64,000 nucleotides of DNA, taken from positions 186,001-250,000 of the forward strand of contig NW_027252691.1 in the NCBI RefSeq assembly GCF_044704955.1. Reading direction: 5' to 3'. The stretch is from Pristiophorus japonicus. Lineage: Eukaryota. The notes below the pieces were generated by a model. That model ran no database searches. It was not told the origin of the DNA and saw only the letters and a list, made by a program, of their open reading frames with translations. This document shows, one piece after another, positions 18,288 to 64,000 of this stretch (positions are counted from its first letter, which is position 1; each line of letters opens with the position of its first letter). The position numbers were made by a program, and so were the translations under genes.

Positions 18288-19010
18288 CTAATCTTCAGCA
18301 TAGGCCGTCCCCGGAGCCAAAAATCCCCCGCTAATCTTCATCATAGGCAATCCCCCCGAGCCAGGAATCCCCCGCTAATCTTCATCATAGGTAGTCCCCC
18401 AGAGCCAGGATTCCCCCGCTAATCTTCATCATAGACCGTCCCCCGGAGCCAGGAATCCCCCGCTAATCTTCATCATAGGCCTTCCCCCGGAGCCAGGAAT
18501 CCCCCGCTAATCCTCATCATAGGCAGCCCCCCAGAGCCAGGAATCCCCCGCTAATCTTCATCATAGGCAGTCCCCCGGAGCCAGGAATCCCCCGCTAATC
18601 TTCATCATAGGCAGTCCCCCCGGAGCCAGGAATCCCCCGCTAATCTTCATCATAGGCCGTCCCCCGGAGCCAGGAATCCCCTGCTAATCTTCATCATATA
18701 CAGTCCCCCCAGAGCCAGGAATCCCCCGCTAATCTTCATCATAGGCCATCCCCCCGGAGCCAGGAATCCCCCGCTAATCTTCATCATAGGCCATCCCCCC
18801 GGAGCCAGGAATCCCCGCTAATCTTCATCATAGGCAGTCCCCCGGAGCCTGGAATCCCCCGTTAATCTTCATCATCAGCATTCCCCCTGGAGCCAGGAAT
18901 CCCCCGCTAATCTTCATCATAGGCAGTACCCCCGGAGCCAGGAATCCCCTGCTAATCTTCATCATAGACCGTCCCCCGGAGCCAGGATTTCCCCGCTAAT
19001 CTTCATCATA
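18288..19010. repeat. Continuation of the 43-45 bp satellite (about 16 copies), merging into an RTE 3' end
   Basis: Same monomer; last unit runs directly into CATAGGCAGTCGCTCGGAATCGAGGAAGACTTGCTTCC. Confidence 0.98.
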
Positions 19011-26638: not shown

Positions 26639-27255
26639 GGGTCAGGAACTCGGGGTCGGGGGGGCAAGGTCAGGAACTCGGGGTCGGGGGGTAAGGTCAG
26701 GAACTCGGGGTCGGGGGAGAAGGTCAGGAACTCGGGGTCGGGGGGTAAGGTCAGGAACTCAGGGTCGTGGGGGTAAGGTCAGGAACTCGGGGTCGGGGGA
26801 GAAGGTCAGGGACTCGGGGTCGGGGGGTAAGGTCAGGAACTCGGGGTCGGGGGAGAAGGTCAGGAACTCGGGGTCGGGGGGTAAGGTCAGGAACTCGGGG
26901 TCGGGGGGGTAAGGTCAGGAACTCGGGGTCGGGGGGGTAAGGTCAGGAACTCGGGGTCAGGGGTTTAAGGTCAGGAACTCGGGGTCGGGGGGTAAGATCA
27001 GGAACTCGGGGTCGGGGGGTAAGGTCAGGAACTCGGGGTCGGGGGGTAAGGTCAGGAACTCGGGGTCGGGGGGTAAGGTCAGGAACTCAGGGGGCGGGGG
27101 GTAAGGTCAGGAACTCAGGGTCGGGGGGTAAGGTCAGGAACTCGGGGTCGGGGGGTAAGGTCAGGAACTCGGGGTCGGGGGGTAAGCTCAGGAACTCGGG
27201 GTCGGGGGGTAAGGTCAGGAACTCAGGGGGCGGGGGGCCAGGTCAGGAACTCGGG
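26639..27255. repeat. 27 bp G-rich minisatellite AAGGTCAGGAACTCGGGGTCGGGGGGT (about 23 copies), preceded by a G/A-rich tract from about 26465
   Basis: Direct tandem copies. Confidence 0.97.
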
Positions 27256-27441
27256 GAACCCACACAGCCAGCTTGCCGGATTCTCGATACAGAAAGTGCC
27301 CAGTCTGGGGTGTGTTGAATGGCCCACGCTGCCCCTTAAAGGGGCCGGGCAGAGCCAAACGAGACTAGAGAGAATATGGATTGTGTGTTGGTCCCACAAC
27401 ATGATAACATTATATTAAGGTAATCGACTCGTCCAAAGTTC

Positions 27442-27512
27442 TCATGGCCAGCCTCCCATCTTCCAGCCTCAATCAACGTGAGCTCATCCAAAACTCTGCT
27501 GCAGGTCTTATC
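27442..27512 (+). mobile_element. L2 LINE 3' fragment (left part; resumes at about 33320-33385)
   Basis: GGCCAGCCTCCCATCTTCC...GAGCTCATCCAAAACTCTGCTGC encodes the L2 LQLIQNSAA-type motif; downstream part CCCATT..TGTGCTC.TGACCTA..CTG.CTCCCG (PITPVL.LHWLP-type) lies after the array. Confidence 0.7.
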
Positions 27513-28340
27513 CCATTGCCCCTGGACCTTCCCCCATTGCCCCTGGACCTTCTCCCATTGCCCCTGGATCTTCCCCCATTGCCCTTGGACCTCCCACCAT
27601 TGCCCCTGGACCTTCCCCCATTGCCCCTTGACCTTCCCCCATTGCCCCTGGATCTTCTCCCATTGCCCCTGGACCTTCCCCCATTGCCCCTGGATCTTCC
27701 CCCATTGCCCCTGGACATTCTCCCATTGCCCCTGGATCTTCCCCTATTGCCCTTGGACCTCCCGCCATTGCCCCTGGACCTTCCCCCATTGCCCCTTGAT
27801 CTTCCCCCATTGCCCCTGGATCTTCTCCCATTGCCCCTGGACCTTTCCCCATTGCCCCTGGACCTTCCCCCATTGCCCTTGGACCTCCCGCCATTGCCCC
27901 TGGACCTTCCCCCATTGCCCCTGGATCTTCTCCCATTGCCCCTGGACCTTCCCCCATTGCCCCTGGATCTTCTCCCATTGCCACTGGACCTTCCCCCATT
28001 GCCCCTGGATCTTCTCCCATTGCCCCTGGACCTTCCCCCATTGCCCTTGGACCTTCCTCCATTGCCCCTGGACCTTCCCCCATTGCCCCTGGACCTTCCC
28101 CATTGCCCTTTGACCTCCCGCCATTGCCCCTGGACCTGCCCCATTGCCCCTGGACCTTCCCCCTTTGCCCCTGGACCTTCCCCCATTGCCCCTGGAACTT
28201 CTCCCATTACCCCTGGACCTTCTCCCATTGCCCCTGGACCTGCCCCATTGCCCCTGGACCTTCCCCCTTTGCCCCTGGACCTTCCCCCATTACCCCTGGA
28301 CCTTCTCCCATTGCCCCTGGACCTTCCTCCATTGCCCCTG
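27511..28340. repeat. 21 bp minisatellite CCCATTGCCCCTGGACCTTCC (about 39 copies)
   Basis: Direct tandem copies; array resumes at 33254. Confidence 0.98.
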
Positions 28341-29024
28341 GAGTGCAGCAGCATAGAATGGCATTCGTGAGTTTGGTAAGTGGGTGAGTTTTAAGGGTTA
28401 TTCTCTTTAAACCATTTGGAGGCTGGAGTAAATTGTTAGTGCCAATTGCCAGCAGCTTCTAAGTAAGTAGCAGTTTAATTTAAAAGGGAAAAGTTAAATA
28501 GTTGGGGATCTTTCAGGGTTAGGCAGAGAAAAACAAGGTAACTCTCCAGTAGGAGGCAATTAGCAGCTAGTTAAAACCAGTTCTGTAAACGACTGACCAG
28601 TAGTGAGTCATCTGACCTAGATACAGTTTAAAAAGAGGCAGCTCATGCAGAGCACAGAGTGCAGCAGCATAGAGTGGCATTCGTGAGTTTGGTAAGTGGG
28701 TGAGTTTTAAGAGAAAGTGGGGGTGGCAGGTGCTGTTTTGTCTTATTTTTCCTACCAATGCTGACACTAGAGCAGCTGATAAAGAGTGCGAGAGTAGGAG
28801 ACGGAGGCCCAGAGACCAACCCAACCAACTGCAGACAAAGATAGAGGGGTGAGAAATCAAGAGGTGACATCACAGCCAAGCTGGTAAGTGGTTGGCTGTT
28901 CGACTGGTAAGTATAACTCTCTTTTAGACTGACATTTAGATTGGTTTAATTGGCAGCGAACTACTAAGTAGACGTTTGGTATTTAAGTAAATTTTAGTAA
29001 GTAAATTAATTTAAGGGTTAAGTC

Positions 29025-35927: not shown

Positions 35928-38900
35928 GTGTACACAATCTGTGGGAGGTGATTAAATGGGTGGTAATCTCAGGACAGTGTAGTGTGTACAGGGGCTGTGA
36001 GAGGTGATTAAATGGGTGGTAATCCCAGGACAGTGTAGTGTGTACATGGGCTGTGGGAGGTGATTAAATGGGTGGTAATCCCAGGACAGGGTACTGTGTA
36101 CACGGGCTGTGGGAGGTGATTAAATGGGTGGTAATCCCAGGACAGTGTAGTGTGTACAGGGGCTGTGGGAGGTGATTAAATGGGTGGTAATCCCAGGACA
36201 GTGTACTGTGTACAGGGGCTGTGGGAGGTGATTAAATGGGTGGTAAACCCAGGACAGTGTAGTGTGTACAGGGGCTGTGGGAGGTGATTAAATGGGTGGT
36301 AATCCCAGGGTAGGGTACTGTGTACAGGGGCTGTGGGAGGTGATTAAATGGGTGGTAATCCCAGGACAGTGTAGTGTGTACAGGGGCTGTGGGAGGTGAT
36401 TAAATGGGTGGTAATCCCAGGACAGTGTAGTTTATACAGGGGCTGTGGGAGGTGATTAAATGGGTGGTAAACCCAGGACAGTGTAGTGTGTACAGGGGCT
36501 GTGGGAGGTGATTAAATGGGTGGTAATCCCAGGACAGTGTAGTGTGTACAGGGGCTGTGGGAGGTGATTAAATGGGTAGTAATCCCAGGACAGTGTAGTG
36601 TGTACATGTGCTGTGGGAGGTGATTAAATGGGTGGTAATCCCAGGACAGTGTACTGTGTACAGGGGCTGTGGGAGGTGATTAAATGGGTGGTAATCCCAG
36701 GACAGTGTAGTGTGTACATGTGCTGTGGGAGGTGATTAAATGGGTGGTAATCCCAGGACAGTGTACTGTGTACAGGGGCTGTGGGAGGTGATTAAATGGG
36801 TGGTAATCCCAGGACAGTGTAGTGTGTACATGTGCTGTGGGAGGTGATTAAATGGGTGGTAATCCCAGGACAGTGTACTGTGTACACGGGCTGTGGGAGG
36901 TGATTAAATGGGTGGTAATCCCAGGACAGTGTAGTGTGTACAGGGGCTGTGGGAGGTGATAAAATGGGTGGTAATCCCAGGACAGTGTACTGTGTACAGG
37001 GGCTGTGGGAGGTGATTAAATGGGTGGTTATCCCAGGACAGTATACTGTGTATAGGGGCTGTGGGAGGTGATTATATGCGTTGTAATCCCAGGACAGTGT
37101 ACTGTGTACACGGGCTGTGGGAGGTGATTAAATGGGTGGTAATCCCAGGACAGTGTAGTGTGTACAGGGGCTGTGGGATGTGATTAAATGGGTGGTAATC
37201 CCAGGACAGTGTACTGTGTACAGGGGCTGTGGGAGGTGATTAAATGGGTGGTAATCCCAGGACAGTATACTGTGTACAGGGGCTGTGGGAGGTGATTAAA
37301 TGCGTGGTAATCCCAGGACAGTGTAGTGTGTACAGGGGCTGTGGGAGGTGATTAAATGGGTGGTAATCCCAGGACAGTGTAGTGTGTACAGGGGCTGTGG
37401 GAGGTGATTAAATGGGTGGTAATCCCAGGACAGTGTAGTGTGTACACGGGCTGTGGGAGGTGATTAAATGGGTGGTAATCCCAGGACAGTGTAGTGTGTA
37501 CACGGACTGTGTGAGGTGATTAAATGGGTGGTAATCCCAGGACAGTGTAGTGTGTACAGGGGCTGTGGGAGGTGATTAAATGGGTGGTAATCCCAGGACA
37601 GTGCAGTGTGTACCGGGCTGTGGGAGGTGATTAAATGGGTGGTAATCCCAGGACAGTGTAGTGTGTACACGGGCTGTGGGAGGTGATTAAATGGGTGGTA
37701 ATCCCAGGGTAGTGTACTGTGTACACGGGCTGTGGGAGGTGATTAAATGGGTGGTAATCCCAGGACAGTGTACTGTGTACAGGGGCTGTGGGAGGTGATT
37801 AAATGGATGGTAATCCCAGCACAGTGTAGTGTGTACAGGGGCTGTGGGAGGTGATTAAATGGGTGGTAATCCCAGGACAGTGTAGTGTGTACAGGGGCTG
37901 TGGGAGGTGATTAAATGGGTGGTAATCCCAGGACAGTGTAGTTTATACAGGGGCTGTGGGAGGTGATTAAATGGGTGGTAAACCCAGGACAGTGTAGTGT
38001 GTACAGGGGCTGTGGGAGGTGATTAAATGGGTGGTAATCCCAGGACAGTGTAGTGTGTACAGGGGCTGTGGGAGGTGATTAAATGGGTAGTAATCCCAGG
38101 ACAGTGTAGTGTGTTCATGTGCTGTGGGAGATGATTAAATGGGTGGTAATCCCAGGACAGTGTACTGTGTACAGGGGCTGTGGGAGGTGATTAAATGGGT
38201 GGTAAACCCAGGACAGTGTAGTGTGTACAGGGGCTGTGGGATGTGATTAAATGGGTGGTAATCCCAGGACAGTGTAGTGTGTACATGTGCTGTGGGAGGT
38301 GATTAAATGGGTGGTAATCCCAGGACAGTGTACTGTGTACAGGGGCTGTGGGAGGTGATTAAATGGGTGGTAATCCCAGGACAGTGTAGTGTGTACATGT
38401 GCTGTGGGAGGTGATTAAATGGGTGGTAATCCCAGGACAGTGTACTGTGTACACGGGCTGTGGGAGGTGATTAAATGGGTGGTAATCCCAGGACAGTGTA
38501 GTGTGTACAGGGGCTGTGGGAGGTGATAAAATGGGTGGTAATCCCAGGACAGTGTACTGTGTACAGGGGCTGTGGGAGGTGATTAAATGGGTGGTTATCC
38601 CAGGACAGTATACTGTGTACAGGGGCTGTGGGAGGTGATTATATGCGTTGTAATCCCAGGACAGTGTACTGTGTACACGGGCTGTGGGAGGTGATTAAAT
38701 GGGTGGTAATCCCAGGACAGTGTAGTGTGTACAGGGGCTGTGGGATGTGATCAAATGGGTGGTAATCCCAGGACAGTGTACTGTGTACAGGGGCTGTGGG
38801 AGGTGATTAAATGGGTGGTAATCCCAGGACAGTATACTGTGTACAGGGGCTGTGGGAGGTGATTAAATGCGTGGTAATCCCAGGACAGTGTAGTGTGTAC

Positions 38901-41900
38901 AGGGGCTGTGGGAGGTGATTAAATGGGTGGTAATCCCAGGACAGTGTAGTGTGTACAGGGGCTGTGGGAGGTGATTAAATGGGTGGTAATCCCAGGACAG
39001 TGTAGTGTGTACATGGGCTGTGGGAGGTAATTAAATGGGTGGTAATCCCAGGACAGTGTAGTGTGTACAGGGGCTGTGGGAGCTGATTAAATGGGTGGTA
39101 ATCCCAGGACAGTGTAGTGTGTACAGGGGCTGTGGGAGGTGATTAAATGGGTGGTAATCCCAGGACAGTGTAGTGTGTACACGGGCTGTGGGAGGTGATT
39201 AAATGGGTGGTAATCCCAGGACAGTGTAGTGTGTACACGGACTGTGTGAGGTGATTAAATGGGTGGTAATCCCAGGACAGTGTAGTGTGTACAGGGGCTG
39301 TGGGAGGTGATTAAATGGGTGGTAATCCCAGGACAGTGCAGTGTGTACCGGGCTGTGGGAGGTGATTAAATGGGTGGTAATCCCAGGACAGTGTAGTGTG
39401 TACACGGGCTGTGGGAGGTGATTAAATGGGTGGTAATCCCAGGGTAGTGTACTGTGTACACGGGCTGTGGGAGGTGATTAAATGGGTGGTAATCCCAGGA
39501 CAGTGTACTGTGTACAGGGGCTGTGGGAGGTGATTAAATGGGTGGTAATCCCAGCACAGTGTACTGTGTACAGGGGCTGCGGGAGGTGATTAAATGGGTG
39601 GTAATCCCAGGACAGTGTACTGTGTACAGGGGCTGTGGGAGGTGATTAAATGGGTGGTAATCCCAGGGTAGGGTACTGTGTACAGGGGCTGTGGGAGGTG
39701 ATTAAATGGGTGGTAATCCCAGGACAGTGTACTGTGTACAGGGGCTGTGGGAGGTGATTAAATGGGTGGTAATATCAGGACAGTGTAGTGTGTACACGGG
39801 CTGTGGGAGGTGATTAAATGGGTGGTAATCCCAGGACAGTGTAGTGTGTACAGGGGCTGTGGGAGGTGATTAAATGGGTGGTAATCCCAGGACAGTGTAG
39901 TGTGTACAGGGGCTGTGGGAGGTGATTAAATGGGTGGTAATCCCAGGACAGTGTAGTTTATACAGGGGCTGTGGGAGGTGATTAAATGGGTGGTAAACCC
40001 AGGACAGTGTAGTGTGTACAGGGGCTGTGGGAGGTGATTAAATGGGTGGTAATCCCAGGACAGTGTAGTGTGTACAGGGGCTGTGGGAGGTGATTAAATG
40101 GGTAGTAATCCCAGGACAGTGTAGTGTGTACATGTGCTGTGGGAGGTGATTAAATGGGTGGTAATCCCAGGACAGTGTACTGTGTACAGGGGCTGTGGGA
40201 GGTGATTAAATGCGTGGTAAACCCAGGACAGTGTAGTGTGTACAGGGGCTGTGGGATGTGATTAAATGGGTGGTAATCCCAGGACAGTGTAGTGTGTACA
40301 TGTGCTGTGGGAGGTGATTAAATGGGTGGTAATCCCAGGACAGTGTACTGTGTACAGGGGCTGTGGGAGGTGATTAAATGGGTGGTAATCCCAGGACAGT
40401 GTAGTGTGTACATGTGCTGTGGGAGGTGATTAAATGGGTGGTAATCCCAGGACAGTGTACTGTGTACACGGGCTGTGGGAGGTGATTAAATGGGTGGTAA
40501 TCCCAGGACAGTGTAGTGTGTACAGGGGCTGTGGGAGGTGATAAAATGGGTGGTAATCCCAGGACAGTGTACTGTGTACAGGGGCTGTGGGAGGTGATTA
40601 AATGGGTGGTTATCCCAGGACAGTATACTGTGTACAGGGGCTGTGGGAGGTGATTATATGCGTTGTAATCCCAGGACAGTGTAGTGTGTACACGGGCTGT
40701 GGGAGGTGATTAAATGGGTGGTAATCCCAGGACAGTATACTGTGTACAGGGGCTGTGGGAGGTGATTAAATGCGTGGTAATCCCAGGACAGTGTAGTGTG
40801 TACAGGGGCTGTGGGAGGTGATTAAATGGGTGGTAATCCCAGGACAGTGTAGTGTGTACGGGGGCTGTGGGAGGTGATTAAATGGGTGGTAATCCCAGGA
40901 CAGTGTAGTGTGTACATGGGCTGTGGGAGGTAATTAAATGGGTGGTAATCCCAGGACAGTGTAGTGTGTACAGGGGCTGTGGGAGGTGATTAAATGGGTG
41001 GTAATCCCAGGACAGTGTAGTGTGTACAGGGGCTGTGGGAGGTGATTAAATGGGTGGTAATCCCAGGACAGTGTAGTGTGTACACGGGCTGTGGGAGGTG
41101 ATTAAATGGGTGGTAATCCCAGGACAGTGTAGTGTGTACACGGACTGTGTGAGGTGATTAAATGGGTGGTAATCCCAGGACAGTGTAGTGTGTACAGGGG
41201 CTGTGGGAGGTGATTAAAGGGGTGGTAATCCCAGGACAGTGCAGTGTGTACCGTGCTGTGGGAGGTGATTAAATGGGTGGTAATCCCAGGACAGTGTAGT
41301 GTGTACACGGGCTGTGGGAGGTGATTAAATGGGTGGTAATCCCAGGGTAGTGTACTGTGTACACGGGCTGTGGGAGGTGATTAAATGGGTGGTAATCCCA
41401 GGACAGTGTACTGTGTACAGGGGCTGTGGGAGGTGATTAAATGGGTGGTAATCCCAGCACAGTGTACTGTGTACAGGGGCTGCGGGAGGTGATTAAATGG
41501 GTGGTAATCCCAGGACAGTGTACTGTGTACAGGGGCTGTGGAAGGTGATTAAATGGGTGGTAATCCCAGGGTAGTGTAGTGTGTACACGGGCTGTGGGAG
41601 CTGATTAAATGGGTGGTAATCCCAGGACAGTGTAGTGTGTACAGGGGCTGTGGGAGGTGATTAAATGGGTGGTAATCCCAGGACAGTGTAGTGTGTACAC
41701 GGGCTGTGGGAGGTGATTAAATGGGTGGTAATCCCAGGACAGTGTAGTGTGTACAGGGGCTGTGGGAGGTGATTAAATGGGTGGTAATCCCAGGACAGTG
41801 TACTGTGTACAGGGGCTGTGGGAGGTGACTAAATGGGTGGTAATCCCAGGACAGTGTAGTGTGTACAGGGGCTGTGGGAGGTGATTAAATGGGTGGTAAT

Positions 41901-44900
41901 CCCAGGACAGTGTAGTGTGTACACGGGCTGTGGGAGGTGACTAAATGGGTGGTAATCCCAGGACAGTGTAGTGTGTACACGGGCTGTGGGAGGTGACTAA
42001 ATGGGTGGTAATCCCAGGACAGTGTACTGTGTACAGGGGCTGTGGGAGGTGATTAAATGCGTGGTAATCCCAGGACAGTGTAGTGTGTACAGGGACTGTG
42101 GGAGGTGATTAAATGGGTGGTAATCCCAGGACAGTGTAGTGTGTACACGGGCTGTGGGAGGTGATTAAATGGGTGGTAATCCCAGGACAGTGTAGTGTGT
42201 ACAGGGGCTGTGGGAGGTGATTAAATGGGTGGTAATCCCAGGACAGTGTAGTGTGTACACGGGCTGTGGGAGGTGATTAAATGGGTGGTAATCCCAGGAC
42301 AGGGTACTGTGTACACGGGCTGTGGGAGGTGATTAAATGGGTGGTAATCCCAGGACAGTGTAGTGTGTACAGGGGCTGTGGGAGGTGATTAAATGGGTGG
42401 TAAACCCAGTACAGTGTAGTGTGTACAGGGGCTGTGGGAGGTGATTAAATGGGTGGTAAACCCAGGACAGTGTAGTGTGTACAGGGGCTGTGGGAGGTGA
42501 TTAAATGGGTGGTAATCCCAGGGTAGGGTACTGTGTACAGGGGCTGTGGGAGGTTATTAAATGGGTGGTAATCCCAGGACAGTGTAGTGTGTACAGGGGC
42601 TGTGGGAGGTGATTAAATGGGTGGTAATCCCAGGGTAGGGTACTGTGTACAGGGGCTGTGGGAGGTTATTAAATGGGTGGTAATCCCAGGACAGTGCAGT
42701 GTGTACAGGGGCTGTGGGAGGTGAGTAAATGGGTGGTAATCCCAGGGTAGGGTACAGTGTACAGGGGCTGTGGGAGGTGATTAAATGGGTGGTAATCCCA
42801 GGACAGTGTACTGTGTACAGGGGCTGTGGGAGGTGATTAAATGGGTGGTAATATCAGGACAGTGTAGTGTGTACACGGGCTGTGGGAGGTGATTAAATGG
42901 GTGGTAATCCCAGGACAGTGTAGTGTGTACAGGGGCTGTGGGAGGTGATTAAATGGGTGGTAATCCCAGGACAGTGTAGTGTGTACAGGGGCTGTGGGAG
43001 GTGATTAAATGGGTGGTAATCCCAGGACAGTGTAGTTTATACAGGGGCTGTGGGAGGTGATTAAATGGGTGGTAAACCCAGGACAGTGTAGTGTGTACAG
43101 GGGCTGTGGGAGGTGATTAAATGGGTGGTAATCCCAGGACAGTGTAGTGTGTACATGTGCTGTGGGAGGTGATTAAATGGGTGGTAAGCCCAGGACAGTG
43201 TAGTGTGTACAGGGGCTGTGGGAGGTGATTAAATGGGTAGTAATCCCAGGACAGTGTAGTGTGTACATGTGCTGTGGGAGATGATTAAATGGGTGGTAAT
43301 CCCAGGACAGTGTACTGTGTACAGGGGCTGTGGGAGGTGATTAAATGGGTGGTAAACCCAGGACAGTGTAGTGTGTACAGGGGCTGTGGGATGTGATTAA
43401 ATGGGTGGTAATCCCAGGACAGTGTAGTGTGTACATGTGCTGTGGGAGGTGATTAAATGGGTGGTAATCCCAGGACAGTGTACTGTGTACACGGGCTGTG
43501 GGAGGTGATTAAATGGGTGGTAATCCCAGGACAGTGTAGTGTGTACAGGGGCTGTGGGAGGTGATAAAATGGGTGGTAATCCCAGGACAGTGTACTGTGT
43601 ACAGGGGCTGTGGGAGGTGATTAAATGGGTGGTTATCCCAGGACAGTATACTGTGTACAGGGGCTGTGGGAGGTGATTAAATGCGTTGTAATCCCAGGAC
43701 AGTGTACTGTGTACACGGGCTGTGGGAGGTGATTAAATGGGTGGTAATCCCAGGACAGTGTAGTGTGTACAGGGGCTGTGGGATGTGATTAAATGGGTGG
43801 TAATCCCAGGACAGTGTACTGTGTACAGGGGCTGTGGGAGGTGATTAAATGGGTGGTAAACCCAGGACAGTGTAGTGTGTACAGGGGCTGTGGGAGGTGA
43901 TTAAATGGGTGGTAATCCCAGGACAGTGTAGTGTGTACAGGGGCTGTGGGAGGTGATTAAATGGGTGGTAATCCCAGGACAGTGTACTGTGTACATGGGC
44001 TGTGGGAGGTAATTAAATGGGTGGTAATCCCAGGACAGTGTAGTGTGTACAGGGGCTGTGGGAGGTGATTAAATGGGTGGTAATCCCAGGACAGTGTAGT
44101 GTGTACAGGGGCTGTGGGAGGTGATTAAATGGGTGGTAATCCCAGGACAGTGTAGTGTGTACACGGGCTGTGGGAGGTGATTAAATGGGTGGTAATCCCA
44201 GGACAGTGTAGTGTGTACACGGACTGTGTGAGGTGATTAAATGGGTGGTAATCCCAGGACAGTGTAGTGTGTACAGGGGCTGTGGGAGGTGATTAAATGG
44301 GTGGTAATCCCAGGACAGTGCAGTGTGTACCGGGCTGTGGGAGGTGATTAAATGGGTGGTAATCCCAGGACAGTGTAGTGTGTACACGGGCTGTGTGAGG
44401 TGATTAAATGGGTGGTAATCCCAGGACAATATAGTGTGTACAGGGGCTGTGGGAGGTGATTAAATGGGTGGTAATCCCAGGACAGTGCAGTGTGTACCGG
44501 GCTGTGGGAGGTGATTAAATGGGTGGTAATCCCAGGACAGTGTAGTGTGTACACGGGCTGTGGGAGGTGATTAAATGGGTGGTAATCCCAGGACAGTGTA
44601 GTGTGTACACGGGCTGTGGGAGGTGATTAAATGGGTGGTAAACCCAGGGTAGTGTACTGTGTACAGGGGCTGTGGGAGGTGATTAAATGGGTGGTAATCC
44701 CAGCACAGTGTACTGTGTACAGGGGCTGCAGGAGGTGATTAAATGGGTGGTAATCCCAGGACAGTGTACTGTGTACAGGGGCTGTGGAAGGTGATTAAGT
44801 GGGTGGTAATCCCAGGACAGTGTAGTGTGTACAGGGGCTGTGGGAGGTGATTAAATGGGTGGTAATCCCAGGACAGTGTAGTGTGTACACGGGCTGTGGG

Positions 44901-47337
44901 AGGTGATTAAATGGGTGGTAATCCCAGGACAGTGTAGTGTGTACAGGGGCTGTGGGAGGTGATTAAATGGGTGGTAATCCCAGGACAGTGTACTGTGTAC
45001 ACGGGCTGTGGGAGGTGATTAAATGGGTGGTAATCCCAGGACAGTGTAGTGTGTACAGGGGCTGTGGGAGGTGATTAAATGGGTGGTAATCCCAGGACAG
45101 TGTAGTGTGTACACGGGCTGTGGGAGGTGATTAAATGGGTGGTAATCCCAGGACAGTGTAGTGTGTACACGGGCTGTGGGAGGTGACTAAATGGGTGGTA
45201 ATCCCAGGACAGTGTAGTGTGTACAGGGGCTGTGGGAGGTGATTAAATGGGTGGTAATCCCATGACAGTGCAGTGTGTACAGGGGCTGTGGGAGGTGATT
45301 AAATGGGTGGTAATCCCAGGACAGTGTACTGTGTACAGGGGCTGTGGGAGGTGATTAAATGCGTGGTAATCCCAGGACAGTGTAGTGTGTACAGGGGCTG
45401 TGGGAGGTGATTAAATGGGTGGTAATCCCAGGACAGTGTAGTGTGTACACGGGCTGTGGGAGGTGATTAAATGGGTGGTAATCCCAGGACAGTGTAGTGT
45501 GTACAGGGGCTGTGGGAGGTGATTAAATGGGTGGTAATCCCAGGACAGTGTAGTGTGTACACGGGCTGTGGGAGGTGATTAAATGGGTGGTAATCCCAGG
45601 ACAGGGTACTGTGTACAAGGGCTGTGGGAGGTGATTAAATGGGTGGTAATCCCAGGACAGTGTAGTGTGTACAGGGGCTGTGGGAGGTGATTAAATGGGT
45701 GGTAATCCCAGGACAGTGTACTGTGTACAGGGGCTGTGGGAGGTGATTAAATGGGTGGTAAACCCAGGACAGTGTAGTGTGTACAGGGGCTGTGGGAGGT
45801 GATTAAATGGGTGGTAATCCCAGGGTAGGGTACTGTGTACAGGGGCTGTGGGAGGTTATTAAATGGGTGGTAATCCCAGGACAGTGCAGTGTGTACAGGG
45901 GCTGTGGGAGGTGATTAAATGCATGGTAATCCCAGGACAGTGCAGTGTGTACAGGGGCTGTGGGAGGTGATTAAATGCATGGTAATCCCAGGACAGTATA
46001 CTGTGGACAGGGGCTGTGGGAGGTGATTAAATGGGTGGTAATCCCAGGACAGTGTACTGTGTACAGGGGCTGTGGGAGGTGATTAAATGGGTGTTAATCC
46101 CAGGACAGTGTAGTGTGTACACGGGCTGTGGGAGGTGATTAAATGGGTGGTAATCCCAGGACAGTGTAGTGTGTACAGGGGCCGTGGGAGGTGATTAAAT
46201 GGGTGGTAATCCCAGGACAGTGTACTGTGTACACGGGCTGTGGGAGGTGATTAAATGGGTGGTAATCCCAGGGTAGGATACTGTGTACAGGGGCTGTGGG
46301 AGGTGATTAAATGGGTGGTAATCCCAGGACAGTGTAGTGTGTACAGGGGCTGTGGGAGGTGATTAAATGGGTGGTAATCCCAGGACAGTGTAGTGTGTAC
46401 AGGGGCTGTGGGAGGTGATTAAATGGGTGGTAATCCCAGGACAGTGTAGTGTGTACAGGGGCTGTGGGAGGTGATTAAATGGGTGGTAATCCCAGGGTAG
46501 GGTACTGTGTACAGGGGCTGTGGGAGGTGATTAAATGGGTGGTAATCCCAGGACAGTGTAGTGTGTACAGGGGCTGTGGGAGGTGATTAAATGGGTGGTA
46601 ATCCCAGGACAGTGTACTGTGTACAGGGGCTGTGGGAGGTGATTAAATGGGTGGTAATCCCAGGACAGTGTACTGTGTACAGGGGCAGTGGGAGGTGATT
46701 AAATGGGTGGTAATCCCAGGACAGTGTAGTGTGTACAGGGGCTGTGGGAGGTGATTAAATGGGTGGTAATCCCAGGACAGTGTAGTGTGTACAGGGGCTG
46801 TGGGAGGTGATTAAATGGGTGGTAATCCCAGGACAGTGTACTGTGTACACGGGCTGTGGGAGGTGATTAAATGGGTGGTAATCCCAGGACAGTGTACTGT
46901 GTACAGGGGCTGTGGGAGGTGATTAAATGGGTGGTAATCCCAGGACAGTGTCGTGTGTACAGGGGCTGTGGGAGGTGATTAAATGGGTGGTAATCCCAGG
47001 ACAGTGTACTGTGTACAGGGGCTGTGGGAGGTGATTAAATGGGTGGTAATCCCAGGACAGTGTAGTGTGTACAGGGGCTGTGGGAGGTGATTAAATGGGT
47101 GGTAATCCCAAGACAGTGTACTGTGTACAGGGGCTGTGGGAGGTGATTAAATGGGTGGTAATCCCAGGACAGTGTACTGTGTACACGGGCTGTGGGAGGT
47201 GATTAAATGGGTGGTAATCCCAGGACAGTGTACTGTGTACAGGGGCTGTGGGAGGTGATTAAATGGGTGGTAATCCCAGGACAGTGTACTGTGTACAGGG
47301 GCTGTGGGAGGTGATTAAATGGGTGGTAATCCCAGGA
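35928..47337. repeat. 56 bp satellite GTGTACAGGGGCTGTGGGAGGTGATTAAATGGGTGGTAATCCCAGGACAGTGTAGT (about 200 copies)
   Basis: Period 56 (CTGTGGGAGG at 36051, 36107); very homogeneous; G-rich plus strand; both ends visible. Confidence 0.99.
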
Positions 47338-47624
47338 TTTTCATCACCATCACAGACAATCCCTCGGCCTAAATCAGAAGCGTATTTCCATATCTGAAGC
47401 AACAGCTCATTAGTTTTAGTAACAGGGCTCCCTCCGGCAGCACCCCTGTGCAGTTTAAATGCTGCTGCTCACTCGGACAGGAAGTGTGAGGAGCAGGAAA
47501 TAGACCTGCGGGTGTGGCCATGTTTCTCACATCGGTAAGCTAAGAATGGAAATAGCAAACGTGTTGCTGGTAAATGAAAATCTGCACACTGAGTGATTGT
47601 GTTCAAATGTAACCTGCATATCGG

Positions 47625-47735
47625 TACATAGGCACACGAGGAGGCCATTCAGCCCCTCGAGCCTGTTCCTCCATTCAATTAGATCCTGGCCGATCTGTAT
47701 CTTAACCCCATTTACCCGCCTTGGTTCCATTTCCT
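47625..47735 (-). mobile_element. CR1 3' UTR fragment
   Basis: GGAGGCCATTCAGCCCCTCGAGCCTGTT...CCATTCAAT matches reverse CR1 3' UTRs elsewhere in the window. Confidence 0.75.
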
Positions 47736-47744
47736 TTTCTACTA

Positions 47745-48012
47745 ATAATATACCCGCATGGATTGTGGATTGGTTAACGGACAGAAAACAGAGGTTAGGA
47801 ATAAACGGGTCATTTTTGGGATGGTAGGCTGTAACTAGTGGGGTACCGCAAGGATCCGTGCTTGGGCCCCAGATATTCACAATCTGTATCACCGCAGGGA
47901 TCAGTGCTGGGGCCCCAGATATTCACAATCTGTATCAATGGTTTGGAAAAGGGTACCAAATGTAATATATCCAAGTTTGCTGATGATGCAAAGCTAAGTT
48001 GTGAGGAGGATG
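47745..48012 (+). mobile_element. CR1 RT fragment, left half of the ERV target (continues 54290-54505)
   Basis: [21 protein letters not shown] (duplicated about 46 bp), KFADD; joins as GAGGAGGATG|TAAAGAGACT. Confidence 0.9.
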
Positions 48013-48684
48013 TGTTAGCGTTAGTGTTTTCTTAGAAGAATCACTCAACACTCAGGGTCGGTTCCAATGCTGAAGCAGCTTTTATTACGCTCAGCGGGAA
48101 GGAAAAACTCAGGACCGTATCCAGGTTTCTCTTCACAGAACAAAGAGTTACATGTACCTTTATATGTTTCACAACAGTTACAAAACAGTTTACTGCAGCT
48201 ACACAGCCCATCACGGCTGGACACAAGCCAATCACAATGATTATAGATTACATATAGGTTATTTTAACCCAATAGAATTCCCCTTATGTCTCAGGAACCA
48301 TGTGTTCGTCTTTTGTCAGCTTGGGCTGATTGATATAGGTTCTCTCACAAGTTCTTTCTTCTTGGAGAAATAATTGGTATATAGCCTTGTTTACAGCAAA
48401 TGGTTTCCCTCTTATCTTTCTTCCTGAAATAATTGGTTTCATGGCCTTGTTCACAGGAGATGGTTTCCTTCTTATCTCTGTCTTCCCAGGCATTCCTACA
48501 GTGGGCCTCACAGGGTTATTGCTCGGTCAGTGAACGTTCAACAGTTCACAGTTTGACTACCTGATTTCCCATAATGCCTGGGCAGCCATTTTATGTGTGT
48601 GTCCATTTAAGCTTATGTGAGTTTTAAATATCCAGCAGGTGCCTAATGCCTAAGTCTATATATATATTTCTACTCTCTACAACA
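48013..48684 (-). repeat. 3' LTR
   Basis: TGTTGTAG...CGCTAACA on minus; TATA-like CATATAAA near 48165 and AATAAA near 48085. Confidence 0.96.
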
Positions 48685-48696
48685 ATTCCCCCCTTT
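48685..48696 (-). promoter_or_regulatory. Polypurine tract
   Basis: AAAGGGGGGAAT immediately before the 3' LTR. Confidence 0.9.
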
Positions 48697-48823
48697 CGGT
48701 AAAGGGACTAGTCCTAGTCCCCTTTTAACCGACCGTACTGCCTTTATCTGATATTTGTGCACTGCCCGGTACTCCTTGCCTCAACGTGCTGGCCAGTCAC
48801 GCGGTTTCAGGAGTCCCGGTTGC

Positions 48824-50953
48824 TTAGATCAAATTAACAAAGGCTAGCTCCTCCCGTCCCCTTATCAAACAGGCTTGTTTAATAGCCAGGGAACGGTGAT
48901 TGGTCCGTTTCCGCTGTTTGTGCCGCCTGCACACCTGGCAGGCCATCACGCCCCATGTTATTGCTAAGATTAATTGTATTCTGACCAGTGTGTGTGAAAT
49001 AATTCGGATCCATGGCTGGATGTTCACATTTATTCCCCAGTCCCAGACCTTTCTCCACCAACTCTGACTTTGTAAGTCTACCTCGGTATCTTCTTCCAGT
49101 TCTTTGATTTTAGTTTGTAGCTGGTGATAGAGTTTTACAGATTGCCCCACTCTGAGCCTTAACTCCCGTAATACCTCCGTGAGATGTGGGATAGGGACCT
49201 GCTCTGGCTCGTCATAATCCTGCAAATGATCATGGAGCTGATCAGTTACTTCAATAACTTCGGACTTCCGGCGCCTAACCTGGGTGATATGCGCTTGCCC
49301 GATCGCGACAGGTCGTAGTGGTGTAAAGCAAAAGTTTGGCTGCGGTATAGGGCACTGCAGGTCATTATACTGGTATGAACGCTCTGTGGTAGAGACGCAG
49401 TATCTTCCCCTCCCTCCGTAGCCTGCCCTCGCGAAGTGCATGTGTGCGGGCACTATTTCTAGTACACACCCGTTGGTTCGGTTAAACCCGCACTCGTCTA
49501 GTTCCCCTCGGCCCACCGGGTGAGGGCATACTGTGATTTCCCCCCCTTTGCTTGCAATCTGCTAGGGAAATCCCAGTAAGTATGTTGAACGGCAGAGGTG
49601 GTGGTTAGGTAGTAGCGTATGGAGACATTTTCCCGTATTACTCCGATATTCTCTAGTTGGTATAAGGGGAACGGCCCTGAGTCCGGCGTTGCTATAGGGA
49701 TCAACAGGACTATCCCTATCCCGGTAGTCCTACCCATCTGGCAATCTGGAATTGCGGGGTATACTCGGGTCAGTCCCTTCAGAGTACAATTATCCAGTGT
49801 CCCCCTTTGGTTCGCCAACTGAGCCAAATGTGAACTGTCTATCCAATCGGGTACTTCCCCGCGTTGGATCTGGTCGAGGTTGTGGCGGATCTGTCCCACC
49901 ATCCACAGACCATAAGCATGACAGAGTTGCCCCTGTCTTTGCTTTATTGTATCTTCTTGTTCTCTATCAATGAGGTGATTGATGGTTTTAGCGTGAGCTT
50001 CCAGGACTGAGATGCCATCCAACTGGATTTCGGCACCCTCCTTTCCTAGGTTGGCCTGGTCTTCCTGGTTTTGCTCCACCCTCTCCAATAACCCCTTCAT
50101 CACCCCTTTAAGCTGTTCTCCCCTCTCATTTAGCCCTTGTATGTCTATCGAGTTCACTACGGAGGTTCCTGTATTGAAAACGGTAGCAACATCATTTACT
50201 ATTTCCCTCTTCACCCTGGGTGCTAACCCCTGTCCCCGGAACTTACTGGCACCCATGGCATCGGCAGCCTGCTGCATTACGACTTTACTTAATACATTGT
50301 ACATCTTCCTTGACTGTTCGGTACAATATTCCGGCATCTGGATGCCTGAAATATTGATCAGAACAGGCACAATTTCATGTTTAACATTATCATACAATAA
50401 TTCCCCTTCGTTGTACATTGCAATCCCATTTTCTGGTCCCTTAGTAGTTATGGGACAAGGCAGTTCTTCGGGCAATGTAGTGATTCTTATGGGGCGCGGT
50501 GTCGGAGGGGGTGAGAAACATACATACAATTATATTGCAGCCGCCCCCGCCTCCTCGTAATACCCACACAGCCCCATTCCCTTCTTGCGGATGACTGATT
50601 GCTGGGATTGTCCCGGAGGGGCGCAAATTATGCCGAAAGTACATTCATCAGGCCCTTTGACATCCCTCCGTTTAATGCATCTGCTCCTTATACCCGTGGA
50701 GCACTGTACACATACTCTTATTCTTATTAGGATTCTTATTAGGATTCACTTGTAACCATGCATTAAAATAAGTCCTGTCCTTGCTCCAGTCCTTGGCTGC
50801 TGGGATGCACATTCCGTCCGTTAAATTAAACAAGACTCCATAGTTCATATAGTTGTTTATTTCCAGCGTGCTCTGCTGTCCGTCGGTGTTGCCCAGGGTA
50901 CGTGCATGTCGCAGGGCTATCCAGATTACGAGTAGCGCCGTTCGTATTCCCAT
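48824..50953 (-). pseudogene. env: Envelope/fusion glycoprotein (about 710 aa reconstructed; about 3 frameshifts and 1 stop), class I fusion, F-like layout
   Basis: Signal peptide MGIRTALLVIWIALRHARTLG; furin site RVKR; fusion-peptide-like EIVNDVATVFNTGTSVVNS; heptads; Cys-rich region; second heptad; WWRKVWDW; TM helix; basic tail; N-glycan sequons. Confidence 0.85.
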
Positions 50954-51040
50954 TCCGGTAAGTATTATCTGTAATTTTAAACAGACGGCCTGGTCGTCAC
51001 CAGGGGTTAAGTTTTTTGCTCTACGAGAGTCCCTGTCACC

Positions 51041-51060
51041 CTGCAAAATCAGAAGCACAA
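51041..51060 (-). promoter_or_regulatory. Putative env splice acceptor
   Basis: TTGTGCTTCTGATTTTGCAG|G about 88 nt before the env ATG. Confidence 0.6.
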
Positions 51061-53555
51061 GGTTATAATCGAACCATTTCGAGCTGAATCTGTAGGGCGT
51101 GCGCCCGTGTCTTTACCCACTTAAATATTACCCAAACTCCTATGACCAAGGCCAAAGCTATTCCTCCAAACATCGCTGTCTGCTTTACCGTTAGGTTGGG
51201 TTTGTGGACTACACCTACCCACCGTGGGGTACATTGGCTCTATTGCCAGAGGTGATGGTGCTATGGCTGCGCACTGCACTATCCGTCTAGTCCCGTTATC
51301 TCTTCCAGCCCGTTTATCTTAGCTTTTAACTCTTCAATTTGTTTTATTGAATATCTATTTCTTTATTGTATCAGGCAAGTATTATTACATAAGCTAGTTC
51401 TGTTTTTATTTTTGTTTCCTCTGTTAGGTGAGTCTTTTTTTTTCCTATTAAGAAATCCAAATTAATAATGTTCAGTATAAAACGGCTGTCAATGGAAAGG
51501 GTTAACTCCTTTCCAGGTTTGTAAGAAGACCTGATGTCATTACGTGACTTCACGTAATCATCTGGAAAAAAAAAGTCTTTGTGCCTTCAAAACTGGCTTC
51601 GAAATTAGGAATCCGTTAAACAGCATAAATCATTAGAGTAAACTCCAATGTTTTCTTAACTTCTAATTCAAGTACTTGCCAAAGAATTTTTTTTTTTAAT
51701 TGTTTTAAAACAAGACCACACATACAATAGCAATTTTGTTTACTGAAATTCAATTCTGTTTTTTTTTTAAATTTCTCTCTTTCTCCTCGTTATCTTCAAA
51801 ACCCTCCTGCTTGTTTAGACTGTTCGGGACATTTTTGATAAACACTGTCCATTTTGGAAATCTTTTCAAACTGCATTGAAACTTTTTCCTAATTGAAAAT
51901 TCGAATCCATGTAGAGTGTTTTTTTACTTATTCCAATTTTTTTTTCTCTTCTAATTAAACCAATATCTTTTTCACAGCAAACATCAACTAGTATTTAGTA
52001 AGTTATGTCTTTTTCCATTTAGTCCGTTACATCTTTTTTTTTCTTTCTTCAAATTAGGTTTTGTATTTTACACGGAGGGTTCGTAACTCCATAAAGTTGT
52101 TAATTTAAAATCATTTGTTTACTTTCAAAGTGGCGTCTTTATCTTTTTCTTTTTCTCCATAACTGGAATGAAGTCCATCTTTGAGAGTTTGAGTGCTTTT
52201 TCGTTATCTCAAAATGCTCCAGTTTCAAAGTCGTTACTAAAGCTTGCTGTTTTTTTTTTAACATTTTTCAAAAGTTCCTTTTACACCTTCGCAGATAGCT
52301 CGCCACTTGCCCAGGAGTTTGACCTGATCAGATTTAATTTAATCTTTCTCTTTTTTTTAAATCCACCTCAGTATTTCCTGTGCCTTCTCTGAATATCTCA
52401 AAATCCCAATTCAAACGTTGTAATTTCAATCTTTATTTAAAACTTTTTTTTTAGAAGCTCTTTTTTTTTAAGCATTCTTTATCTCATTCCGAGACTAAAT
52501 TTATGTCTTTCAACCCAATCAATCATTGCATGTTTTCTTTCGGCAAGTAAGTGAGCATGTCAAATAAATATTTTGCTCAACAAACCTATTCTTTATTTGT
52601 TTATTTTCCTAGCTCCGTAACTTATCATCCGAATAAATCCACACCTGCGTTTCTAACTTAAATGTCTTAAAACTTCCCACATACAGGACAACATTACAAA
52701 GGGTTTAAAAAAAAGACTTTCACTCTGTTTCTAAAATAAACAGACACTTGCATTCCTCTTCCAACCAGACTTTCGGAACATGAAAACATAAAAAAATTCA
52801 TTCTGCAGTCAAAAATCACACAGACACTTCTCACTCAACGATTTACAACAGTCTCTCTTCTTGTTTTGGCCGGCTCTATTTTTGGATCCATGACCTTTCA
52901 GGGAATTCGTAGTTTTATCTAAATAATTCCTCACATAACTAATTCCTGAGGATTCCACCCTGCTTTAATCATATTTTCAATAAGCTTCTTTTGTTTTTCC
53001 GCCAGGTGGCGGGTAAGCGACCCTTCTGGTCCCCACTCGAGTTTACTTGTTTTCATGGCCATTCCTGGGTAGGACTACTACCGTTAGGAATCTACTCTCA
53101 GAGGTCCGCTTTCTTTCTAGCGCGACTTGTAGTAAACTGTCTCTTGGCTACTGTCAGGTCACAAGTTCTGCTGTTGCACAAACTTATACAATTCTTAAAA
53201 ACGCGTTTAAGCAATTCCCGCAGTGCTCTACATATCCTTAACGACTACCTACCACCGCTCAGCCTGTTGGTCCGACCCTGTTCACAGGTTTGGATTCCGT
53301 TAGCCGCTGTACACCGCTTGGTTCTATCCCGGGGTATTTCAAATTACACTACTGAGTCCGGAAGATGTCTCTCGGTATCACGATCCCACGGTCTAAGTGT
53401 GTTCCCTACGCCTACTTGGTTCCTGGCCGTCACGTGGGACAAAAGTCCTCTTAATTCAGGCTCAGGCTAGGCGTTTGAGATATTAGACCGTCTCCTCATG
53501 TCGATCAACCAGCTTCCACCTTCCGCACCCTTTATACTTAAAAATTGTTTTTTAT

Positions 53556-53564
53556 ACTCACCCG
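53556..53564 (-). promoter_or_regulatory. Putative major splice donor
   Basis: CGG|GTGAGT about 55 nt downstream of the 5' LTR. Confidence 0.6.
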
Positions 53565-53597
53565 GGTTTTTTCCAAGGGCGTCCAGCGACTCCGGGA

Positions 53598-53616
53598 AAT
53601 CCCGTCGACTACGCCA
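53598..53616 (-). promoter_or_regulatory. Primer binding site, tRNA-Ser
   Basis: TGGCGTAGTCGACGGGATT versus TGGCGTAGTCGGCAGGATT expected for the vertebrate tRNA-Ser 3' end; 1 nt from LTR. Confidence 0.85.
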
Positions 53617-53617
53617 T

Positions 53618-54289
53618 TGTTAGCGTTAGTGTTTTCTTAGAAGAATCACTCAACACTCAGGGTCGGTTCCAATGCTGAAGCAGCTTTTATTACGCTCAGC
53701 GGGAAGGAAAAACTCAGGACCGTATCCAGGTTTCTCTTCACAGAACAAAGAGTTACATGTACCTTTATATGTTTCACAACAGTTACAAAACAGTTTACTG
53801 CAGCTACACAGCCCATCACGGCTGGACACAAGCCAATCACAATGATTATAGATTACATATAGGTTATTTTAACCCAATAGAATTCCCCTTATGTCTCAGG
53901 AACCATGTGTTCGTCTTTTGTCAGCTTGGGCTGATTGATATAGGTTCTCTCACTAGTTCTTTCTTCTTGGAGAAATAATTGGTATATAGCCTTGTTTACA
54001 GCAAATGGTTTCCCTCTTATCTTTCTTCCTGAAATAATTGGTTTCATGGCCTTGTTCACAGGAGATGGTTTCCTTCTTATCTCTGTCTTCCCAGGCATTC
54101 CTACAGTGGGCCTCACAGGGTTATTGCTCGGTCAGTGAACGTTCAACAGTTCACAGTTTGACTACCTGATTTCCCATAATGCCTGGGCAGCCATTTTATG
54201 TGTGTGTCCATTTAAGCTTATGTGAGTTTTAAATATCCAGCAGGTGCCTAATGCCTAAGTCTATATATATATTTCTACTCTCTACAACA
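53618..54289 (-). repeat. 5' LTR
   Basis: Same length as 3' LTR; only one difference spotted by eye (CACAAG vs CACTAG). Confidence 0.96.
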
Positions 54290-54505
54290 GGATGTAAAGA
54301 GACTTCACGGGGATATAGACAGGCTAAGTGAGTGGGCAAGAACATGGCAAATGGAATATAATGTGGAAAAATGTGAAGGTATCCACTTTGGTAGAAAAAA
54401 GAGAAAAGCAGAGTATTTTTAAATGGTGAGAGATTGGGAAATGTTGGTGTTCAGAGGGACCTGGGTCCTTGTACACCAATCACTGAAAGTTAACATTCAG
54501 GTACA
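54290..54505 (+). mobile_element. CR1 RT fragment, right half of ERV target
   Basis: DIDRLSEWARTWQMEYNVEKC-type sequence continuing from 48012. Confidence 0.88.
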
Positions 54506-62055: not shown

Positions 62056-64000
62056 ACACCCGCACCCCCCCCCCCAAAGTCAATAGTGTAACTATTTACA
62101 ATGTGAGTTGATCTGGGGCCCTTCTTGCCCTGGTTGATTGTCTCTGTGTGAAAGCTGGTGTTGTTAAATCATTTGTTGGGCCCTCGCTGGGCTGCTGTGC
62201 AGCTGGCCTTGCTGGGCTGCCTGGTGTGTTGGGCCCTGCTGGGCTGCTGTGCAGCTGGCCTTGCTGGGCTGCCTGGTGTGTTGGGCCCAGCAGGGCTGCT
62301 GTGGATGATGGGTTCTGCTTCATGGCCAACCATGGTGCCAGTTACCACTGGTGTGTATGTTGGGGGATCAAAAAGGTAGGGTCCAAGGTGGGTTGCTCAG
62401 GGTAGTCCGTGAATCTGAGTTTGATTTGGTCCAAGTGTTTCCGGTGAATGAGTCCATTTGAAAGTTTGATCTGAAACACCCTGCTCCCCTCTTTGGCCAC
62501 GACAATGCCGGGAAGCCACTTGGGACCTTGCGTCATGTAGGGTGAAGTCAGATCCAGCTTCATGAACGTCTTTCCTCCCGCCAGCATTGCAAAGAGGGCG
62601 TCGGCCTTTGGTAGTGGGTATTGGTCCTGAAGAGAGAAACGATTGATAGTTACTTTGTAATCGCCACAGATTCTGACGGTGCCGTCTTCCTTGAGGACTG
62701 GGACGATAGGACTGGCCCACTCGTTGAACTCGATCGGGGAAATGATGCCCTCTCTTTGCAGCCGGCCTAGCTCGATCTTTACCCTTTCTCTCATCATGTA
62801 CGGTACTGCTCTCGCCTTGTGATGGATGGGTCGCGTCCCCGGAATTAGGTGGATCTGCACTTTTGCTCCTTGGAATTTCCCGATGCCTGGTTCAAACAGC
62901 AAAGGAAATTTGTTTAAGACTTGGGCACATGAAGTGTCGTCAGTGGGCAATAGCACTCAGATGTCGTCCCAGTTGCAGCATATCTTTCTCAGCCAAGCAG
63001 CGTGGGATCATCACCCGGTACCACCCAGAGTGGTAGCTTGTGCACCGCTCCATCGTAGGAGACCGTTACGGTAGCACTGCCGATTACAGGAATCAGTTCT
63101 TTCGTGTAAGTGCTTAGTTTTGTGCGAATTGGAGTTAAGACTGGCCTTGAGGCCTTTTTGCACCACAACCTTTTGAAAGTTTTTTTGCCCATGATGGACT
63201 GGCTCGCGGCCGTGTCCAGCTCCATTGACACCGGGAGTCCATTTAGTTCAACATTCAGCATTATCGGGGGACAATTCGTGGTGAATGTGTGCACCCCATG
63301 TATCTCTGTCTCCTCGGTCTGAGACTCTGGTTCGTCGTGATCCTCCGTGGATCTGTCCTCCTCTGCAACGTGGTGGTTTGCAGGTTTAACAGGCTTTGCA
63401 GCTCACCTGCGCACTCGTTGGAGGTGTCCCATTGTTCCACAGCCCTTGCAAACGTATCCTTTGAATCGGCATGAATGGAAACGATGATCACCCCCGCAGC
63501 GCCAACAAGGTGTTAATGGCCTTGCATTCATCACCCTTGATGAGGGACTCTGAGACATCTGTGGATGTGCAGCTGCAGGTATGTGTGACCTGCCCTGTAC
63601 GTTACGATTTGAAAACAACATCACTTTGTTCACAGTACTTGTAGCAGCACTTGTGTGCTGAGAGATTTACTTCGTATTGTCACTGGTGGCAATGAACGCC
63701 TGGGCTATCGCTATGGCCTTACGCAAGGTTGGGGTCTCGACAGTCAAAAGTTTGCGAAGTGTGGTTTCGTGGCCAATACCAAGTATGAAAAAGTCTCTGA
63801 GCATGTGCTCCAAATGTCCTTCAAATTCGCAATGTCCTGCAAGGCGTCTTAGCTCAGCGACATAACTCACCACTTCCTTTTGTAGGTGTAGAACCAGTAC
63901 CTCACCATCAGAACGCTTTCCTTTGGGTTCAAATGCTCTAGGACCAGTGTGCACAAATCATCGTATGATTTCTCTGTGGGTTTCACTGGAGTGAGCAGAT
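62056..64000 (-). mobile_element. Ty3/Gypsy (Mag-like) internal region, degenerate and internally deleted; runs off right edge
   Basis: Gag (YVAELRRLA..CEF, LRDFF, CWRCGGDH..C, CKGCGTMGHL), protease MELDTAAS, RT N-terminus (WASPIVPVLK, RICGDYK, KLDL), integrase C-terminus (GPKWLPG, RKHLDQ). Confidence 0.93.

Follow-up and report, generated by a model that had tools for sequence, protein, structure and literature searches.

How can a retrovirus-like element that encodes no working protein have inserted into a shark genome in the recent past, and what part, if any, did the one gene that it still carries play in its movement? These questions are raised by an element on the minus strand at 48013–54289 of a 64,000-nucleotide (nt) stretch of the Pristiophorus japonicus genome (contig NW_027252691.1, positions 186,001 to 250,000; hereafter the window), in which two long terminal repeats (LTRs) of 672 nt each enclose a broken env gene and a centre in which we recognized no gene. 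An earlier note on this DNA had proposed that an env donor and a gag-pol helper complement each other in a bipartite system. We favour, with moderate confidence, a different reading: the element belongs to an abundant family of retrovirus-like LTR elements of sharks with an F-type env, is itself non-autonomous and was moved in trans, and its env travelled as a dead passenger.

The two LTRs differ by a single mismatch (A at 48349, T at 53954), begin with TG and end with CA, and have a terminal inverted repeat of 4 nt. GGATG stands on both sides of the element, a 5-mer match with a chance probability of about 0.001. The left and right flanks join into one reverse-transcriptase (RT) motif of a CR1 element. 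Seven further CR1 pieces within the window have the two parts of this motif side by side, and the element is therefore a clean insertion. Near-identical LTRs and a perfect target-site duplication (TSD), both described in the earlier note, were thus confirmed. Together with a primer-binding site (PBS), TGGCGTAGTCGACGGGAT, and a polypurine tract (PPT), they are among the features expected of non-autonomous families of the D-type ERVK or recKoRV kind. The PBS resembles the 3′ end of a serine tRNA and is putatively of that type. At the rate implied by the part of Han 2015 (PMC4422223) drawn on here, in which a divergence of 0.033 corresponds to 75 million years (My), one mismatch in 672 nt gives, by hand calculation, an insertion age of about 3 My (95% Poisson range about 0.1–19 My). 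The insertion can therefore be called recent, as it had been, in a relative sense only, and the element is not necessarily active today.

Eight public runs from 3 studies contain the stretch in whole or in part, seven from one organism and one from a second (organism B), and the best of them possibly comes from the assembly's own sample. No run among them was listed as RNA, which has no bearing on expression. Four of the eight were compared with 47400–53617 at 80% likeness; these are contig data, and summed depth is not a copy number. In the DNA run X1, mean summed depth was 301k over the LTR (3 bins), 247k over env (11 bins) and 222k over the centre (11 bins), as against 61 in the sole flank bin outside repeats. 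These depths exclude a single copy, a case that the earlier note had raised against itself, and indicate a similar abundance of env and centre. Two further samples and organism B, the latter in diverged form, each cover 29 of 30 bins, and an identical joint between PBS and LTR is present in contigs of runs X1, X5 and X6. The defective centre is therefore common to a multi-copy family, as in D-type ERVK and recKoRV.

The same contigs bear on whether the LTR clock can be trusted. If the copy were old, its LTRs would owe their likeness to gene conversion or assembly collapse, to which LTRs of high copy number are generally open. At four positions (48885, 50120, 50924 and 53176, among 40 of 677 sites listed) X1 differs from this copy at about 99% or more of depth, and the LTR clock predicts 4.2 private changes; this agreement argues against conversion or collapse. 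The TSD is perfect, the CR1 target is continuous, the LTRs are not in fact identical, and CpG is not depleted within the element. We consider an old copy very improbable.

A search of 1.84 billion cluster representatives with the longest env piece (343 amino acids (aa)) gave 31 matching proteins. Ten of these were looked up, eight of them from sharks or a skate and two from frogs, with identities of 85% in P. japonicus itself (P0009), 75% in Heterodontus and 57–63% in Chiloscyllium. Intact relatives of 701–722 aa, about 60% identical (60–61%), were found in Mustelus asterias and on further contigs; in Mustelus there are several near-identical intact copies, two of them on contigs of about 9 kb. 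The shark env had no sequence match in Pfam or in PDB, and an atlas look-up returned Baculo_F, Gypsy env and Fusion_gly at 0.92–0.95, with a low value for recognition. The predicted structure of an intact Mustelus relative, P0002 (mean pLDDT 61, core 70–90, the 160 N-terminal residues mostly of low certainty), matches the F proteins of human parainfluenza virus 3, respiratory syncytial virus, henipavirus and Newcastle disease virus (best E 4e-10), and this model identifies the env as an F-type fusogen. The env of the element has a signal-peptide-like start, an RVKR cleavage motif at 50206–50217, a heptad region, a Cys-rich domain and a transmembrane segment at about 48940–49003. More distantly related (25% identity) is a cluster of 16 annotated proteins of the frog Mantella aurantiaca (P0031, P0039–P0052), most of those listed being intact at 677 aa; to judge from these sequences, it is a young env-bearing family in that species. 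In two further proteins, P0026 (a 'Niban 1-like' model of P. japonicus) and P0033 (with a caspase domain), pieces of the env family are joined to host-like sequence, probably by exonisation or by fusion during annotation.

Several sharks have annotated gene models of env, which raises the possibility that one or a few source loci are maintained by the host, env being kept intact by co-option, perhaps as a factor that blocks entry, and the RNA of these loci being occasionally copied by an unrelated Gag-Pol. In X5 and X6, whose kind is not on record, median depth over env and LTR exceeds that over the centre, as spliced RNA would give. However, the copies in X1 are diverse (8,900 of 62,060 contigs are at least 99% alike, flank repeats included), and the closest P. 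japonicus models, P0009 and P0010, are broken or partial, P0009 being the broken one at 85% identity. Such a host-kept source seems to us a poor candidate for the origin of this element.

Compared with its intact relatives, the env of this copy has four breaks (three frame changes, one of them at a 7-nt run, and a stop), in line with the roughly four lesions counted earlier. By the LTR clock, env should have gained about 1.6 mutations after the insertion, of which 0.16–0.4 would be disabling if 10–25% of mutations disable, which is an assumption; the probability of four or more is then 2e-5 to 7e-4. Because four breaks stand against so few expected hits, env was in all likelihood dead at insertion. 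An X5 contig from another sample, with a depth of 633, fits 50421–50785 with one differing letter and no gaps and so carries break 1; it may stand for many copies or for one expressed locus. Taken together, these data strongly indicate that env was broken before the insertion, and the earlier inference that the decay is older than the insertion is supported; this copy probably arrived with its env already inactive. Run lengths vary among contigs, including that of the 7-nt run near 49540 which had been singled out for checking, and contigs cannot tell whether this fourth break is real or an assembly error. Deletions in env seen in single contigs (for example 48836–48950 in X5 and X6) were discounted, with fewer than 30 letters on their short side.

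The rest of the element cannot make up for the loss. It holds no intact gag, pol or env. The N terminus of P0009 maps to the leader at 53297–53250 and then jumps to env, as it would in a retroviral env mRNA spliced from a donor at 53252 to an acceptor at 50969; a leader-to-env joint was absent among the 15 of 132 joints listed, in contigs, which cannot show splicing. The span between donor and acceptor (50969–53252) is 2,284 nt, too short for gag-pol, and the element is non-autonomous, as had been supposed.

Within the centre (51051–53617), none of the six frames, with stops read as X, had a Pfam match at E ≤ 1; nor was there a match in Rfam, among stored proteins or, by tblastx, elsewhere in the window. 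Between 51051 and 53100 there are 13 A/T runs of at least 7, compared with 2.3 (maximum 6) in base shuffles, an excess that is smaller against dinucleotide shuffles of 51301–53100 (13 versus 7.4, maximum 15). The ratio of observed to expected CpG is 0.70 in the centre and 0.66 in env, and 0.14–0.48 in four CR1 pieces of the window. Since the centre equals env in this respect and lies above the CR1 pieces, it does not resemble an old methylated fossil, and its wear looks like the product of replication cycles, not of a long stay in methylated DNA. The earlier description of 51060–53550 as decayed and devoid of protease, RT and integrase motifs therefore holds for the missing motifs and the homopolymers; decay as such is only inferred, and former coding content is not in evidence. 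Two hairpin-rich segments, one within the centre (51451–51650) and one at the 3′ end of env, may serve as cis elements.

It could be argued that the centre is a real gene (gag, or an accessory gene of coiled-coil type) and that assembly errors in homopolymers give it a broken appearance. The 13 long runs, whose lengths differ among contigs, would fit, as would a slight deficit of stops on the sense strand. This deficit (140 versus 170 ± 8 in base shuffles) was itself rejected as a signal: with dinucleotide shuffles as the control it loses significance (z −1.7). In 32% of shuffles a stop-free stretch reaches the 71 codons that are the maximum in the centre; deep contigs from other samples (records 20, 23 and 24) align to portions of the leader and centre with hardly any gaps or none; and the first 101 codons from the candidate gag start at 53062 found no homologue among 15 candidates. 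An intact reading frame in the centre would, moreover, still leave pol no room. A hidden gene is thus improbable in our view, about as much so as a host-kept source. Motif-like words picked out by eye in the centre (RNase H-like near 51510, YMD-like near 51910) were rejected as unsupported.

How, then, would such an element move? Complete cis signals without coding capacity mean, by established retroviral biology, that its RNA must use Gag-Pol in trans. In the reading that we favour, the element has kept LTRs, PBS, leader, PPT and structured RNA segments, all the signals in cis that its copying requires, but encodes no working protein, and we infer a helper, an autonomous relative at another place in the genome whose Gag-Pol would package, reverse-transcribe and integrate the RNA. 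The ends (LTR, leader and env) would derive from a competent helper or be refreshed by recombination with one, which would make env appear younger than the centre. The centre would be an older non-coding segment between splice donor and acceptor, either swapped in or left by the erosion of gag after the loss of pol, and many rounds of reverse transcription may have given it its A-richness, its slippage in runs and its small loss of CpG. A young env beside an unrecognizable centre can be explained in this way without any function of env, because both the swap of a central segment and recombination with a helper have published precedents.

Some contigs carry hints of a helper-type relative. Diverged contigs of low depth in X1, X5 and X6 (records 7, 16 and 22) fit the element near 52975–53150 and then diverge. 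In run X8 of organism B, an 827-nt contig (record 30) fits only the start of env (50759–51142); its other 446 nt, apparently upstream, do not resemble the window and may come from a relative that has pol.

Several points weigh against this account. Neither a helper nor a relative of env was found in viral, metagenome or prokaryote contigs, where shark DNA is not expected, the LTR–PBS motif had no match in viral contigs, and there was no Pol–Env fusion among 4,348 candidate proteins of 1295–3695 aa; nor did the centre have a match that would name its source. With the mutation rate at its upper 95% bound, the lesion test weakens to P 0.01–0.18, and one of the four breaks, at the homopolymer run, could be an assembly error. 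Env is kept nearly full length, more of it than the koala element recKoRV1 retains. At 237 positions on which two outgroups agree, this env has 8 changes of its own compared with 14 in P0009, so it was still under constraint until fairly recently, and of 19 listed variant sites within env or immediately before it, 8 are synonymous, more than the one-quarter or so that neutrality would give, although these are too few to test. The earlier claim that env outlasted the rest thus survives in part: env is in a far better state than the centre, but was likely dead by the time of this insertion.

The constraint on env also speaks for the bipartite proposal. In its full form it describes a naturally segmented, two-component system of the vertebrate germ line, in which the shark family would have lost gag-pol before two species split and kept a spliced F-type env under selection; this env-only donor family would give fusion protein to env-less gag-pol helpers, which package donor RNA, and the present copy would be a recently broken offshoot. 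Since env and centre are about equally deep, env in this family seems to be mostly accompanied by the non-coding centre. The splice donor and acceptor motifs are kept and are used by the gene model of a relative, and the diverged form of the centre in organism B suggests that it is possibly old, beside an env constrained until recently. However, the env of this copy was probably dead on arrival, break 1 recurs in abundant sequence from another sample, and no intact env closer than the 60–61% identical Mustelus proteins was found among proteins of 602–2000 aa, which is weak evidence. The contigs of about 9 kb that bear intact Mustelus env would, furthermore, fit the length of a complete gag-pol-env element. 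We therefore did not adopt the proposal and regard it, in either form, as unlikely; if env-intact siblings and env-less helpers do exist, it would amount to a vertebrate retroelement split into two cooperating genomes. The coordinates on which the preferred account, a dead env carried by a non-autonomous element, is based are collected in Table 1.

Table 1. Features of the element and its borders (positions in the window)
Feature	Position	Strand	Basis or remark
TSD GGATG, left copy	48008–48012		Sequence
3′ LTR, 672 nt	48013–48684	−	Sequence
PPT preceding the 3′ LTR	48686–48697	−	Sequence
Structured env 3′ end / 3′ untranslated region, several hairpins	48690–48950	−	z −4.2, 0 of 200 shuffles as stable; window chosen after scan
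Broken F-type (paramyxo/pneumovirus-like) env	48824–50953	−	Four breaks relative to intact relatives
Env break 4, frame change at 7-nt homopolymer run	49540–49546	−	Run length differs among contigs in 4 of 4 runs compared
Env break 3, frame change	49584–49600	−	
Env break 2, in-frame stop	50530–50532	−	
Env break 1, frame change (~50716–50732) beside 12-nt tandem duplication (50720–50747)	50716–50747	−	
Splice-acceptor-like AG (TTACAG|AT), just upstream of env start	50969–50970	−	Suggested by P0009
A-rich non-coding core	51301–52900	−	Sense strand 41% A, 32% GC, long A/T runs
RNA hairpin cluster inside centre, perfect 8-bp stem	51451–51650	−	z −3.5, 0 of 200 shuffles as stable; best of 34 windows
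47-codon stop-free stretch, ATG at 53062	52934–53074	−	Putative gag start or packaging region
Leader exon ending in splice-donor-like GTG|GTAGGT (intron from 53252)	53253–53598	−	Junction suggested by P0009
PBS TGGCGTAGTCGACGGGAT	53599–53616	−	1 base beyond the 5′ LTR
5′ LTR, 672 nt, TG...CA	53618–54289	−	U3 with 60-nt tandem duplication 53972–54091
TATAAA and AATAAA in 5′ LTR	near 53769; near 53691	−	Putative promoter and polyadenylation roles, from motif only
TSD GGATG, right copy	54290–54294		Flanks continue one CR1 RT motif

The surroundings of the element are repetitive. A tandem array of a 44–45-nt unit (some 388 copies with 86% matches, rich in C on the plus strand) fills 1–17169 and 18288–19024, another of a 56-nt unit (about 204 copies, 95% matches) occupies 35939–47337 and ends 700 nt to the left of the element, and further arrays lie at 26640–28342; together these give the window the look of satellite-rich DNA, possibly subtelomeric. 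Between 17261 and 60021 there are at least seven further CR1-type LINE pieces on both strands, 71–83% alike to the insertion target. A stop-free stretch of 204 codons on the minus strand at 62345–62956 has no similarity to the centre of the element; by eye it resembles the part of a Gypsy-type pol between protease and RT.

No description of this shark family was found in the open-access and bioRxiv literature, Repbase and Dfam lying outside the search, and the parts consulted of PMC9040795, PMC8672886, PMC11089739, PMC4422223, PMC10699275, PMC12440569 and bioRxiv 10.1101/2023.10.26.564294 contain no account of it. The passenger design is known from cattle and koala; this shark lineage seems to be undescribed.

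Among known systems, spleen focus-forming virus, which is carried by a Friend murine leukaemia virus helper, resembles the shark element in having a replication-defective genome with env as its main retained gene; it belongs to an exogenous laboratory complex, and its env is a signalling protein and not the fusogen of the helper. In its env the shark element is like the lokiretroviruses, for which the part of Wang and Han 2021 (PMC7947760) drawn on here describes a signal peptide, an RXKR site, a fusion peptide, a coiled coil, a transmembrane segment and a likeness to F; lokiretroviruses are defined there by RT phylogeny, as the sister group of retroviruses, and are further marked by a tether plus RNase H, a CGIN1-like integrase and a Gag with a capsid fold, whereas the shark element, having no pol, can be likened to them by env alone. 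The lokiretrovirus screen in the same source was positive in none of six cartilaginous-fish genomes, and it is in this group that an abundant lineage with an F-type env is now documented. Zebrafish BHIKHARI elements (Bik-1 and Bik-2; Chang et al., bioRxiv 10.1101/2024.03.25.586437) are likewise abundant, young, non-autonomous relatives of lokiretroviruses with a single gene, but are the mirror case, with an intact functional gag and neither pol nor env, where the shark element retains a broken env.

The closest likenesses are to two mammalian families. In the sections of Tang et al. 2024 (PMC10924933) used here, the D-type elements of cattle ERVK[2-1-LTR] are non-autonomous, 6–7 kb long, without an intact gene and moved in trans; they make up 85% of their family, outnumber their helper, recombine with it in the gag and env flanks around a swapped centre of 2.7 kb and dominate new insertions, and ETn and recKoRV, the authors remark, follow the same pattern. 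The shark element would have similarly helper-like ends with an env remnant around a centre of 2–3 kb that may likewise be unrelated. Cattle D-type elements, unlike it, are betaretroviral, have a retroviral env, are primed by tRNA-Lys and have a known helper, whereas the shark env is F-type and nearly full length, and its helper is unseen. The koala element recKoRV1, as described in the part of Lober et al. 2018 (PMC6112702) consulted, combines, in a layout that the shark element may share, young LTRs, a leader and the 3′ part of env around an older, degraded retroelement segment in many copies; it keeps only the end of env, is a gammaretrovirus, and the donor of its centre, PhER, is known. 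The reading that we favour would extend this 'parasite of a parasite' pattern, seen in endogenous retroviruses of cattle, koala and mouse, to cartilaginous fish.

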